Assembly (NCBI GenBank): GCA_965153355.1
Contig: OZ231126.1
Location: 11,346,001 to 11,410,000, forward strand
Direction: 5' to 3'
Length of the DNA: 64,000 nucleotides
DNA from: Flaccisagitta enflata
Lineage: Eukaryota
Shown here: one piece after another, positions 12,515 to 55,863 of the stretch
How positions within the stretch are numbered: the stretch's first letter is position 1
How the letters are laid out: each line of letters begins with the position of its first letter
The notes under the pieces: model-generated
The model's input: the letters and a program-made list of their open reading frames with translations, nothing else
What the model was told of the DNA's origin: nothing
The model's database searches: none
Program-made: the position numbers and the translations under genes

Positions 12515-14105
12515 TTTCGTTCTTTCTTTTCTTTTCTTTTCTTTTCTTTCTTTCTTTCTTTCTTTCTTTCTTTCTTTCTTTCTTTCTTTCTTTCTTTCTT
12601 TCTTTCTTTCTTTCTTTCTTTCTTTCTTTCTTTCTTTCTTTCTTTCTTTTTTTCTTTCTTTCTTTCTTTCTTTCTTTCTTTCTTTCTTTCTTTCTTTTTT
12701 TTCTTTCTTTCTTCCTTTCTTTCTTTCTTTTTTTCTTTCTTTCTTTCTTTCTTTCTTTCCTTTCTTTCTTTTTTTTCTTTTTTCTTTCTTTTCTTTTCTT
12801 TCTTCTCTTTTCTTTTCTTTTCTTTTCTTTTCTTTTCTGTTCTTTTCGTTTCATTTCATTTCATTTCATTTCATTTCATTTCATTTCTTTTCTTTTCTTT
12901 TCTTTTCTTTTCTTTTCTTTTCTTTTTTTTCTTTTCTTTTCTTTTTTTCTTTTCTCTTTTCTTTTCTCCTTGCTTTTCTTTTCCTTTTTTTGGGCAGCGT
13001 CCCCAAAGGGGACGAAGTCCTGTAGCACACAGGGGGAATCTGTCTGTCCGTCCGTCCGTCCGTCCGTCCGTCCGTCCGTCCGTCCGTCCGTCCGTCCGTC
13101 CGTCCGTCCGTAAGCCCCCCCCCCCGGGCCACCCTCGGCTTCGTCTCCTTTGGGGCCCAAATCCAAACTGTATGGCCCAAATCCGAGCAAAATGGTCCAA
13201 ATCCGCCCAAAACTGGCCAAATCCAGGCAAAATGGCCTAAGACCAGGTAAAATGGGCCTTATCTGGCTAGAAAACCTGAATTCTGGCCTGAGTTCTATTA
13301 TCTTGGCCCCTTAAATTTAGATTCTGGCTCCAAAAACCCACATCCAAGCCTTAGAGACCCAGATCCTGACCTTTGGGACCCAGATTCTGACCCCCAAGAC
13401 CTAGGTGCTGGCCTAAAAGACCTAAATCCTAGCCTCAGAGGACCAAATCCTGACTTCAGAAACTAAAATCCTTGCATCTGAGACCAAGACATTGGTCTCT
13501 GAGACCCAGATTCTGGCCTCAGAGATCCAGATCCTGGCCTGCTCCTGCCTCAACTTAACCTACAAACTATACAAAAATGGCAAGGGTACCATTGTCCATA
13601 TTCTGCCTTTTTTCAGTTCTCCTTGATATTTAATGAAAATTTGAATAACAGGGCATCCTGGATAGAAGGAAGGCGAACAGGACGGACGGACGGACGAACG
13701 GATGGACAGATTCCCCCTGTGTTCTACAGGACTTCGTCCCCTTCGGGGCCGCTGCCCTGCTCCCTCTCAACCTTCATCACTTCCTACTCAAGCAGGGCAC
13801 GGGTACCGCTGACCCCTTACTGCCTTTGGGCTGCTATTTTCTTTTCTTTTCTTTTCTTTTCTTTTCTTTTCTTTTCTTTTCTTTTCTTTTCTTTTTGTTT
13901 CATTTCATTTCTTTTCTTTTCTTTTCTTTTCTTTTCTTTTTGTTTCATTTCATTTCTTTTCTTTTCTTTTCTTTTCTTTTCTTTTCTTTTCTTTTCTTTT
14001 CTTTTCTTTTCTTTTCTTATCTTTCCTTTTCTTTTTTTTTCTTTTCTTTTCTTTTCTTTTCTTTTCTTTTCTTTTCTTTTCTTTTCTTTTCTTTTCTTTT
14101 CTTTT
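12515..14105. repeat. (TTTC)n/(TTTTC)n/(ATTTC)n pyrimidine microsatellite tract split by a family B element
   Basis: Tract visible on both sides of 12992-13838. Confidence 0.95.
12992..13838 (+). mobile_element. Family B (subfamily B1) non-autonomous element: long inverted repeat plus asymmetric stem-loop tail
   Basis: GGGCAGCG..CCCCAAAGGGGACGAAGTCCTGTAGCACACAGGGGG is inverted at ~13710-13757. It also has (GTCC)n, ~21-bp internal repeats and the tail agcagggcacgggtaccgctgacc..gcctttgggctgctatt. Inserted in a T run. Confidence 0.8.
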
Positions 14106-14502
14106 CTGTCCTTGACAATTTTTTTTTATCTCCTTTCAGTTCTTCCTCTTCTTTGCTCCCTCTTTCTTTTTCCTCTTATTTCATTGACATGTTTCAGCAG
14201 CCCTCAATAAAAACCACCTGCGTCTTTAGAACAAACTGATGTTAGTTCACGTCGCTTTATCTTCAATGACATGTCTGGGTACTAGTTTCTAGAACTAGCA
14301 GATGGTAATCAGTGAATACTATTCACACTCTCAGTACCTATTGTTTTTCAACAGATGCTCCTCAATGGCATGTTGGGGCACCACGTTACTAGAATTAGCA
14401 GATGGAAATCACAACCACTTTACCCATTGTTTTTCATCATAGGCTTTTCAATGGCATGTTTGAGGATCGTCTAAGATATTTACAATTTTCATTATCCAAC
14501 AG

Positions 14503-14688
14503 AGGCTCTGTACGTGGCGGTGGTGGAGCAATTTACCGATTCCAAATGCTGCGGCCTTCAGAGGCGGATTTTGGAGAGTTGCAACATCCACATCATCCCC
14601 GTCGACCCCAAACTTCCCGTCAAAACCTTCCGTCACCAAACAGTCGCTCAATCATCCCCACAATATTGGCTCGGGCTCACCTCAGAAG
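14503..14688 (+). CDS. Internal exon of NHL-repeat protein gene (phase 1 / phase 1)
   Basis: Acceptor ttttcattatccaacAG, donor G|GTAAGC. Encodes ALYVAVVEQF...PQYWLGLTSE-G, which joins in frame to NIIVSD of exon 32214 to complete an NHL repeat. Confidence 0.8.
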
Positions 14689-15837
14689 GTAAGCGAATGT
14701 TGAATGTCACCAAATGAATACATGTAGAAGAGGAAGGCCATATATCACGTGCGGGTGGGCAGGGTCAGCGTTAAACGAGGCTAACTAAGCATTTGGGCCG
14801 GAGTATAGTAGTTATAAGAAAAACGCCTGTTATCGCTTAAAAAGCAAAGTGTTACCGACGAAACACCCGACCGACCACCCGACCGACATAGCGGGTTACA
14901 GAGACCACAAAAAGCAAAAGGCTTCTGGTCCAACTTTTGAGAGAGACAAACCCCACATGAATCGATGATAATAACATATTCACGTAAAGATTTGATCACT
15001 TGACAAGTTGAGAAACTATTTTCGAGCAGCGCTCTCTTGGCTCTGCAATAAATTTGGCTGATTCAGACGTTGATTTCAAACTTGAAAATCCTTTTCTTTG
15101 TCATTCGCAATCGTTAAACTTATTTCAAGTCTCTTTTTCGACGCCCAACTTCTTTCTTCTCGGCCTTTTTTCTTCATTTAAACGTCTTTTTTAAAGCGGT
15201 AGTCGGGATCTTCTTTGATTCGCAAAACCATTTTTCTGTCTAGGGCCTTATCTTCTCTTTTCTTTTCTTTTCTTTTGCCTAATTTTCTTCTTCTGCCTGT
15301 TAAATTTGCGAGTTTCTTCCCTCGCATGTTGTACCAATGGTACTACGCGTCCTCGATCCTCTGTAAGACGTCTGTGCTACCATATTTCTGTCCATTCACC
15401 CGTCTTTCTGACGATCTGTCCGACTGTGTTTCCCCTCCGTCTGTCTGTCGATAATGCTGTTTTCACATTGTGAGAGATGGCCGTAAAACAGGTCTTGTAG
15501 GTTTCATCTGTTTTACTTGCCATTTCCGAATGGTCTAAGCTTTTTCTTTTTTTCTACGCTCGTGAAACCAGATTGCGCTCATCTTGTCAGTAGCTAAAAA
15601 GCGTTTGTGACGTGAACTTGGAAAATTCATTTGGCCATTTTTCAATATTTGATGCCTCCTGCTGCGCTCAAAAAACTCAAGTCATTTTCACTTCGTTTGC
15701 TCTCTCTCTCTCTCTCTCTCTCTCTCTCTCAAAATAGACCGAAGATTGTTCTGACATTTATGTTTTGGACGTGCCCCAACGAAAATCGATCGTCTCTATG
15801 ATGCAATTTGCATTCTTTCAACGTTTTTTAAAGCATC

Positions 15838-53543: not shown

Positions 53544-54089
53544 TACATTCCTTCCGTCCTTTCTTCCTCTCCGTTTTCCCTCCCTCCTCTTTTTCTAATT
53601 TCCTCTTTTCCTTTCCGTTTTTACTTTTCTTATTTTCCTTTTTTTCCTGGTTCTTTCCGAATTCAGGCTGACGGTCAGACCCCTAGAAGGGTCATTTTTC
53701 AAAGTGTGATTCAACCAGATTTGTTTATTTTACCATTAAATATGATGTTTGAGGGGTTGGAAAACCAATTTTGTTTTGCTTAGCAGCTCCTCAATTTTCT
53801 GCTAGCGCTAATTTTATTCCGAAGTATGCAAATTGGCTTTAGCGAATTTTGGCTGACTTAAGCCCATAAATCACTTACATTTATTAGATAGCGGTTATTC
53901 TCACTTATCATAGGATGATCAGGGATAGATATTCGTAACAACGTCATTATCCTTTCTCCGAATAATGCAAATTAGGTAAAGATAATTAGACAAGATAAAG
54001 TAAAATTGCTAGTGATAAATTGCAGCACTAGCAGTGTTTGAGAAAGAAGGAAAGGGAGAGATCAGGGGAAGGGGCTCATGGATTAACTA

Positions 54090-54642
54090 CAGTAGATCTC
54101 GTCTAGACTTGAGATAACGGGGGCAAGCATTGCAGAAAGACAAATAAAGGCAGGGGAGTGATATTTGGATTATAGACTAATCAAAGAATGCTTAATTCCC
54201 CATGATAGCTGGTTGCCATGGAAACACATTTCCATGTATTCTCGCTAAAATATCAATATTTTTTTAGGGAACATTACTTAAAATCAAATTTGCTACCACT
54301 TTCCCAAAGTATGTTCTTTAAGAATGTCGCTCATTTGGCCATTGCTAGGGAGCGTATCCAAGTGTGACAACCCCTAGCAACCGCTAAACGAGCGACATTC
54401 TTACAGAACATACTGTGGGAAAGTTGTAGCAAAGTTAATTTTAAAAAATGTTCCCTCAAAAAATTTCTCAAAATATTGATATTTTAGCGTAAATACATAG
54501 AAATGCGTTTCCATAGCAACCATCTATCATAGGCAATAAAGCATACCTTCATTATTCTATGTTAAAAGTATAACTCCCCCAGCCTCATTTGTTTTTCTAC
54601 AATGCTTGCCCCCGTAATCTCAAGTCTAGACGAGATCTACTG
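54090..54642. mobile_element. Tc1/mariner-like foldback MITE, TA TSD (sister of 35432-35961)
   Basis: TA|CAGTAGATCTCGTCTAGAC ... GTCTAGACGAGATCTACTG|TA; arms are inverted over ~260 bp. Confidence 0.87.
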
Positions 54643-55863
54643 TACACCGTCTTTAGATCAGACTGTAGAATGCAAAACCTTTGTAGCTCCTAAACCACGT
54701 GGAAACAAGGCCGGATATACGGCAATCCAGTCGCTGACGGTTGGGCAGGAGCAGTACTGCAAAAATCGGTCGAAATTAAGAAATGTGACCGACGGACCGA
54801 CCGACACAGCAAAGTGTAGAGTTGCGTGTCCGTGACTAAAAATCTGAACAGTATCTGGGTCCGCAATGGAGGGGGTTAAAGATCACCAATTCCATAAGAT
54901 CGCTAACCCTGTAAGTTCGCTAAAATTATAAGTCCTACATTTAGAGTCTCCATACAAAGATTCATGCAAATCCATTGAAAAATGGCAAAGTTATGCACGT
55001 TTTTCACTTTTAGGCTAGTAGGGTGGTTTAGGGTTGCATGTTTCCCATTGAATAACATGGATAATTGATGAAAACTAAGAAAAATGAAAAATTCCCATTT
55101 AACAACAAGGCAAATTGACAAGAAGTTGAAGAAGAAATGCAAAATTCCCATGGAATTTCATGGAAAATTGCTACCAAGGCCTCATGTATGCCCTGTCAGG
55201 ACGTATGGTAATTCACCCCTGTGTCCTACAGGACATTGGCCCTTTGGGGCCGCTGCCCTGCTCTCACTCTACTTCATCAGCTAAGGACTCCAAGCAAGGT
55301 ATTGGGTACCGCTGACCATTTGCGATCCTTGGATGACTTGTTTATACTATGATCTGAGCTTTGACAGTCAAAAACCGTCACATGTTACCAATATTCACAA
55401 ATAATTTCATGAATTTTTGGGCAGCGGCTCCAAAGGGCTGATATCCTGTATAACACAGGGGTGAATTTCCAGATGTCCGTCTGTCCATACGTACATCTGT
55501 CTGTCTGTACGTCTGTCTGTCTGTCTGTCCCCCCCTGCCAAAGCTTCTGAGCCTCATGTTCCCATCAAATAACATGTAAAATTGAAGAAATGCAAAATTC
55601 CTATTGAATAACATGAAAAATTGAAAAAGAAATGAAAAAAATATGAAATTCCCATTGAATAACGTGGATTTGGTACTTTTTTTTTCAACAGTCTTGCCAA
55701 TTAGGTCACTGTGGGTTAGAATCTCAGTGTTTCTTCAAATTTCAGGATTTTAATGGCCATTACTTCTAAAAAAAGTAAAGGGGGACAAACAGTGTCGCTT
55801 GACTAACGTTTTCCATTTTTGGGCTAATCTTGGGTTAATTTAGGTCAGTCAAGCAGATATGCA

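Follow-up and report, generated by a model that had tools for sequence, protein, structure and literature searches.

What kind of mobile element is family B, whose copies combine long inverted repeats (IR) with a small hairpin near the 3' end, and how much of that end is its own? The question is raised by a 64,000-nucleotide (nt) stretch of Flaccisagitta enflata DNA (the window; assembly GCA_965153355.1, contig OZ231126.1), which corresponds to C1:11346001-11410000 of a 794-Mb genome of nine contigs, here C1-C9. A sequence-only reading of the window had proposed a rolling-circle, non-autonomous family resembling Helentrons and DINE-1, and this is borne out by nine partners with the same ends that encode a Rep-helicase. 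At a probability of about 0.92, sequence comparison indicates that family B most likely consists of gene-less derivatives (HINEs, DINE-1-like) of the HLE2/Helentron clade of rolling-circle transposons in this genome. Features of HLE1, the canonical Helitrons, are absent: the ends are a T run with GGGCAG and a final TT, not 5' TC and 3' CTRR at A-T.

Architecture and abundance of family B

Family B is real and abundant. Copies in its own genome were counted by letter-pattern matching, and the 14-letter tail core GGGTAYCGCTGACC has 38,126 exact matches genome-wide (19,051 and 19,075 on the two strands), while the backwards control has 0. Narrower patterns gave 11,444, 8,541 (the T2 tail) and 869 (the type of the copy at 12992) matches; T1-T6 denote hairpin tails and IR1-IR3 the types of repeat arm. 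We estimate that at least 38,000 copies of ~600 bp make up roughly 3% of the genome, which matters for its annotation. The window holds 13 pieces, 12 of them on the + strand and 34097-34606 alone on the - strand, and the shared architecture, coordinates, 20/21-bp cores and both stems described earlier are present in the sequence.

On its 5' side, a copy opens with 4-6 T, followed by GGGCAGCGGCCCC and its GAA or CAAA hairpin, then by an extension that differs between lineages, and by a microsatellite; on its 3' side, it continues with the 20/21-bp tandem core, the reverse arm, a spacer of ~50 nt, CGGGTAYCGCTGACC, the small hairpin, and a final TT. Two features had gone unmentioned in the sequence-only reading: each repeat arm holds an internal hairpin with a GAA or CAAA loop, and the tail motif repeats the terminal word in degenerate form. 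Arms carry a palindrome of the type GGCCCC-GAA-GGGGCC, so that a 5' hairpin overlaps the 5' repeat. The subterminal inverted repeat common to both ends has a 13-bp core, and its right copy sits ~80 nt inside the conserved tail. Repeat lengths have medians of 35-73 bp; the ~45-220 bp given previously overstates the typical copy, although 188-226 bp does occur as an extreme. A paired stem of 3-4 bp lies near the 3' end in six tail types; it is not, as had been supposed, paired in every copy, being broken in the one at 40662. The supposedly uniform terminal letters are found in the types first named B1 and B3 (GACCTGTT/GACTWGTT), but B2 ends in GACTATT and the 12992 type in GCTATT. The copies in the window, with three features of the copy at 39696 as examples, are as follows.

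12992..13838, + strand: complete copy, IR1 arm and tail T4, own subfamily, GTCC microsatellite, 20/21-bp core
21636..21956, + strand: internally deleted copy, 5' end and tail T3, lacking the inner arm
34097..34606, - strand: complete copy, IR2, tail T2, second stem in the TGC/GCA version, arms reaching into the core
36753..38077, + strand: complete copy, IR2 (36 bp), tail T2, second stem in the CT/AG version, 55 units of a 20-mer
38135..38879, + strand: complete copy, IR1 (59 bp), tail T1
38941..39669, + strand: complete copy, IR1 (59 bp), tail T1
39696..40274, + strand: complete copy, IR3 (55 bp), tail T3
40182..40237, + strand: example of the second stem, inner CCGCTGCCCTGCT paired with AGCAGGGCATCGG, 30-nt loop
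40235..40249, + strand: example of the conserved tail word, CGGGTACCGCTGACC, which repeats the 5' terminal word in reverse and degenerate form at 25 nt from the end
40257..40266, + strand: example of the terminal hairpin, ATCC-TT-GGAT
40662..41268, + strand: complete copy, IR2 extended to 226 bp, tail T2, broken hairpin, within a 54-bp tandem array
47995..48549, + strand: 5'-truncated copy, IR2, tail T2
48737..49262, + strand: complete copy, IR1 (82 bp), tail T1, core folding back on itself
49424..49755, + strand: degenerate IR3-type copy, terminal hairpin deleted
55022..55342, + strand: 3' part of an IR3 copy, tail T3, left limit approximate
55419..55670, + strand: 5' part of an IR3 copy lacking the 3' end, right limit approximate

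Five copies follow one another head to tail and in one orientation at 36753-41268, with short pyrimidine spacers between them, and similar chains occur at other sampled loci and as contig joints; such chains fit strand-biased insertion into T/C tracts. At 55022-55670, an IR3 3' half, a 76-bp gap, and a 5' half stand in permuted order, perhaps as remains of a tandem or circular form.

Repeat lineages, full-length partners and target sites

We collected 169 distinct 3' ends from 969 kb (the window and further loci), of which 138 were typed for arm and tail and 31 were untypable. The combinations among the typed ends were IR1-T1 (38), IR1-T4 (31), IR2-T2 (46), IR3-T3 (22), and IR3-T5 (1), counts that are not frequencies since many loci were chosen by tail pattern. 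None is crossed, and typing of both arms in complete copies gave matching arms in 89 of 90. The idea that the hairpin tracks the repeat type thus stands as far as crossing is concerned but fails as a one-to-one rule, given that IR1 occurs with T1 and T4 and IR3 with T3 and T5: hairpin type is nested within repeat type, with six tails (five distinct stems) for three repeat types. The copy at 12992, which had passed for a B1 copy with a point change, belongs to a separate subfamily, with its 869 exact matches and a full-length partner of its own. The pattern with a pyrimidine at the first stem position has 742 matches, mostly single damaged copies among 100 listed. The new tail T6, CGCT-TG-AGCG, is fully paired, recurs five times among 100 matches listed, and has an IR2-like arm in four copies. 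A further paired tail, ATGC-TT-GTAT, stands beside a divergent arm in a single copy at C1:171972, its one occurrence.

Partner frames were sought with the DUF6570 profile as a marker of HLE2. It has 150 matches in the genome, in frames of up to 3,632 amino acids (aa), and we read 40 long frames downstream and ~20 upstream. Nine elements of ~12-19 kb carry both matching B ends around a DUF6570-Rep-PIF1 frame of ~2,700-2,900 aa.

C3:12.00-12.01 Mb: partner with tail T4
C4:39.95 Mb: partner with tail T3
C2:35.40 Mb: partner with tail T5
C1:73.0 and C9:53.2 Mb: partners with tail T1
C3:91.07, C5:8.28, C8:4.82, and C8:17.51 Mb: partners with tail T2

All nine are reversed, the B tail with its hairpin lying upstream of the gene and the 5' end with its T run downstream. 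Chance flanking of Rep frames is unlikely, because the ends are type-matched and face each other, and because the inner arm is followed by unique sequence and no core. The remaining loci showed one B end or none within the stretch covered; upstream of C9:64.48, C8:27.32, C4:11.77, C4:74.90, and C2:81.74, no B left end was found in the 5-6 kb covered. In all four frames scanned (2,708-2,872 aa from the first Met), Helitron_like_N, PIF1, and DUF6570 scored above cut-off, and the HUH, Y2, and Walker A motifs are intact in partner frames. In the IR2 pair, a UCH domain (83 and 77 bits) is fused at the C terminus of the transposase frame, and the N terminus has a weak GDSL/SGNH-like match. Partner proteins differ in their last domain, which is UCH in the IR2 lineage and another in IR1 and IR3; the latter is possibly papain-like, a lead from comparing the last 210 aa of the T4 partner with an atlas, where the top score of 0.80 brought papain-like leads only. 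No separate RPA frame was present among partner frames of at least 250 aa.

The proteins of the IR1, IR2, and IR3 lineages are 41-51% identical to one another. In a quick tree of 40 rows of helicase-end fragments, IR1 (T1 and T4) forms a clade with support of 100 and IR3 (T3 and T5) one with 98, while the IR2 sequences fall into two (92 and 94); the type of inverted repeat agrees with the transposase tree, which has three lineages. The repeat word is particular to each transposase lineage, so that protein, hairpin, and repeat type are inherited together. Downstream of the gene, each of the four partners examined also holds 2-5 internal copies, degenerate in sequence, of its own repeat word; these suggest putative protein-binding sites. 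A protein search returned three close relatives (99, 65, and 56%), all as proteins lacking DNA context, followed by Helentron-type proteins at 24-37%. The exact B pattern had no match in metagenome contigs, and a protein-guided metagenome scan gave 80 distant loci (at most 45% identity) with four chance-level motif matches and no B ends; small shares in marine-metagenome runs say nothing about habitat. Another young HLE2 family, 98-99% identical and with frames of up to ~3,460 aa, occurs at C6:6.84, C6:6.27, C6:59.35, and C2:22.23 Mb; it has a sharp common 3' boundary ending CAGATTTTTT and no B ends.

Insertion sites are T-rich. Among 103 complete copies, 95 are preceded by 4-6 T, 88 have C before the T run, and all end in TT. 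With T stripped, 84 copies have no flank match, against 90.5 expected from shuffled pairs; long flank matches are few and of no fixed length, and a fixed-length duplication was not seen. Paralogous empty sites, sought by anchor matching, were found for 11 of 66 queries, and in 10 of the 11 the spacer is two letters shorter than the T total of the filled site, the eleventh being a local duplicate. The partner at C1:73.0 sits within a 12992-type copy and shows the same +2 against three empty copies. Contigs from three DNA runs were dominated by other copies and gave no readable empty allele or circle junction. A net gain of two T fits insertion between TTTT and T/C, as described for Helitron2 (PMC3627910). 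Empty sites with a TT insertion and no target-site duplication had been proposed as a check: the two letters were found, but a TT duplication fits them equally.

Several points count against the classification or narrow it. Of the 150 DUF6570 loci, 40 were covered downstream and ~20 upstream. The Exo_endo_phos match lies at the expected place behind the helicase in 4 of 4 frames, but at E values of 3e-3 to 3e-5, below the Pfam cut-off, and the transposase tree came from a quick search and has long branches. At the target sites, short flank matches are slightly in excess (eight 3-mers against 1.6 expected), and TT duplication and element-borne T are indistinguishable by sequence, an ambiguity likewise discussed for DINE-1 in the part of that study consulted (PMC2374699). 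Empty paralogs often carry non-T letters where filled sites have T; this is explained by a choice of T-rich targets, and target letters may also be replaced on insertion.

The right end and its rival explanations

The second stem exists in three versions: GCCCTGCT/AGCAGGGC in T1, T3, and T4, with T.G variants in T5 and part of T2; GCCCCT/AGGGGC in most T2; and GCCCCATTA/TAATGGGGC, with nine Watson-Crick pairs, in T6. As had been claimed, it is kept paired throughout these versions, but it is not tied to repeat type, B2 having both of those described at the outset. Because copies within one subfamily represent one event, we judged covariation by lineage-level arm swaps, which rest on a handful of lineages and not on copy number. 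Over 152 ends, a stem's own arms pair on average at 9.0 positions in T6, 5.9 in T2a, and 7-8 in the first type, and a T6 or T2a left arm combined with a first-type right arm pairs at only four. In this covariation, both arms changed on two independent occasions and not on hundreds; the structure-keeping change proposed earlier is supported between lineages (six tails, five stems, three second-stem versions).

The right end carries one 9-bp word three times in alternating directions (inner arm, GGGCAnCGG, and reversed tail word), and competing folds follow from this. The second stem runs on through CCG/CGG, its right arm GGGCAnCGG being a further occurrence of the terminal word; with the inner arm blocked from pairing, three of four ends folded pair GGGCAnCGG with the tail word instead. 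The portions of the HLE2 literature compared contained no long-loop second stem overlapping the inner repeat, no triple terminal word, and no degenerate copy of that word at the usual place of the 3' repeat. The end had been called unusually elaborate, a description that survives for the second stem only, the other features being already described in those sources; the second stem looks like the one unusual part of the element end and like a modest structural variant.

By analogy with Helraiser and Helitron2, the transposase would bind the lineage-specific repeat word, a nick would be made at the T-run (5') end, and one strand would be peeled off; the small 3' hairpin would then stop transposition, with the shape of its stem mattering and the letters not, and the circle would be closed and inserted into (C)TTTT^T/C tracts. 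The Helraiser result, in which stem letters are exchangeable and the loop is important, fits the variable stems with mostly TT loops of family B. We give even odds to a role for the second stem, which may form on the displaced strand and help to present the end or to hide the inner origin copy until the 5' arm pairs. Extended to this HLE2 clade, the idea becomes speculative and, in our judgment, improbable: the right end would act as a two-state single-strand switch, in which the long-loop stem, preserved as three independent versions, hides the inner origin copy on the displaced strand, pairing of the 5' arm exposes tail word and hairpin for termination and circle closure, and each transposase lineage reads only its own word. 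Three observations on structure weigh against the explanation favoured here. In whole single strands, end-to-end pairing beats the second stem in three of four copies folded; the exception is 12992, where the second stem wins and the 5' arm has a mismatch. ViennaRNA, whose model disallows 2-nt loops, assigns no stability to the T3 hairpin (0) and -1.7 to -2.9 kcal/mol to the others. Lastly, a poorly paired tail recurs four times among 100 matches listed.

The second stem could instead be functionless, its arms staying complementary through template switching in single-stranded intermediates, by which one arm is copied onto the other. We regard this as credible, if somewhat doubtful. Copies do exist whose long repeat has grown into the core, some with arms of 188-226 bp against 35-68 bp in partners; the shared 9-bp word forms part of the second stem; and 5 of 53 T2 ends have an A.A mismatch in the second stem of a B2 variant. 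However, the stem retains its place and its loop size (45-52 nt span) among lineages whose proteins are only 41-51% identical, and two lineages have T.G wobble versions, which copying would not produce.

Rather unlikely, in our view, is an origin in which the tail word represents the 3' repeat of the ancestral HLE2 and the long inner arm is what remains of the 5' end of a reverse-nested element, which would also account for the reversed gene (the model in Fig. 8 of Chellappan 2016). The tail word does match the 5' word and lies 22-25 nt from the end, right before the hairpin, which is the Helitron2 position, and the inner arm faces the gene as a normal 5' end would, yet with no T run. On the other hand, inner and outer arms change jointly in each lineage, so that the inner arm is maintained, and no normally oriented relative turned up among 80 metagenome loci, which are all distant and lack B ends.

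An ordinary cut-and-paste MITE, a miniature inverted-repeat transposable element, with TT target duplication would share the long inverted repeats, high copy number, and net +2 T at empty sites, but is very improbable for a family whose right repeat sits ~80 nt inside a conserved tail and whose same-ended partners encode an HUH Rep-helicase. Equally hard to credit is an RNA switch at the end, as had been suggested, or a repeat mobilized through RNA in the manner of a short interspersed nuclear element (SINE): some polyA reads do cover element ends, but they number 1,347 of 12.2 million in one polyA run, run equally in both directions, cover ends only and leave cores uncovered, and show no start or end pile-up; elements have no poly(A) tail, Rfam gave only generic hairpin matches far below gathering scores for 36700-41400, and reads at one spot mostly share a variant and thus probably derive from one host transcript.

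The window also contains a second abundant repeat family, which starts with ACAAGGCCGGATACACGGC, has an ACCA-type microsatellite, and closes with a GTCGCGT..ACGCGAC palindrome followed by an A/T run; it looks like another HINE-type family. By motif, it has 15 left and 4 right ends, with sites at 6869, 7767, 21127-21330, 24170, 26125, 26560-26380, 33736, 42135-42360, 47757, 48653, 49810, 50850, 54705, and 61277. Its other contents are as follows.

1-5860: 71-bp satellite array, ~86 units
9257-10939, - strand: open frame of 560 aa that matches reverse transcriptase (RVT_1, 117 bits), a 5'-truncated long interspersed nuclear element (LINE)
32213-32452, + strand: probable host exon, beta-propeller match DUF5128 (E 6e-6)
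42599-42752/45145-45298, 54088-54644, and 28286-28857: inverted-repeat pairs of 150-175 bp outside family B, possible MITEs or DNA transposon remnants

Comparison with known systems

The comparisons made here draw on parts of each cited publication. In Thomas et al. 2014 (PMC4067079), members of a family have in common a repeat of at least 11 bp, and the last 60 bp, including the stem-loop, set subfamilies apart. Family B shares with the Helentrons and HINEs described there the palindrome-bearing subterminal inverted repeats, the 3' stem-loop, the Rep/Helicase partners (with a weak endonuclease-like match here), the T-rich targets with a variable number of T, and a microsatellite with a tandem core. 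It departs from them in its longer repeats (35-73 bp vs 12-15), in the distance of the inner repeat from the end (~80 nt vs 38-60), in its second stem, in having no separate RPA frame of at least 250 aa, and in the reversal of all nine partners; that study has one Helentron with a reversed gene.

Helitron2 (Bao and Jurka 2013, PMC3627910) is similar in its 5' hairpin overlapping the 5' repeat, its 3' repeat 20-30 bp from the end and before the hairpin, its compensatory changes, its insertion at the junction of TTTT with T/C, and its reversed genes (two Helitron2 elements), and mutually exclusive pairing has been proposed there as an end signal. The competing fold in Helitron2 is the 5' hairpin, whereas family B adds a competing 3' stem and a threefold word at that end. 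DINE-1 (Yang and Barbash 2008, PMC2374699) and the oyster Cg_HINE (PMC7492417) share a GTCY-type microsatellite that follows the 5' repeat, tandem repeats in the centre, a 3' stem-loop with compensatory change, TT targets, and element-specific changes of repeat and stem-loop; in family B, the repeat sequence differs, the central units are shorter (20/21 bp), and the right end is longer.

The GAA-loop 5' hairpin, reversed frames, and DUF6570 marker recur in FoHeli1-5 of Fusarium (Chellappan et al. 2016, PMC5148889) and in HLE2-reverse (HELIANO, PMC11417382). Capture of UCH in HLE2 is described as well (PMC11417382/PMC5148889), and a nesting model for gene reversal comes from Chellappan et al. 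2016 (PMC5148889). Family B differs from these elements in its animal host, in the fusion of UCH within the IR2 transposase frame, and in the weak N-terminal GDSL/SGNH-like match; fish Helitrons carry a separate SGNH gene (PMC4021074). Helraiser (Grabundzija et al. 2016, PMC4778049), of which family B is no member, is an HLE1 element with TC...CTRR ends and AT targets; its 5' end is needed, its 3' hairpin ends transposition, and it forms circles. A foreign stem in that hairpin keeps ~90% activity, and a changed loop does not.

The literature searched yielded no experimental dissection of HLE2 ends. The value of family B lies in the test set that it provides, in which partners with intact frames lie on one transposase tree together with three repeat words, six tails, and three versions of the second stem, and end swaps between its lineages could ask which part binds, nicks, or terminates. 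Stem-loops specific to subfamilies, compensatory changes, end pairings that exclude each other, and reversed genes are already published for HLE2; the class is already known, and hence family B is no surprise but a good natural test set.

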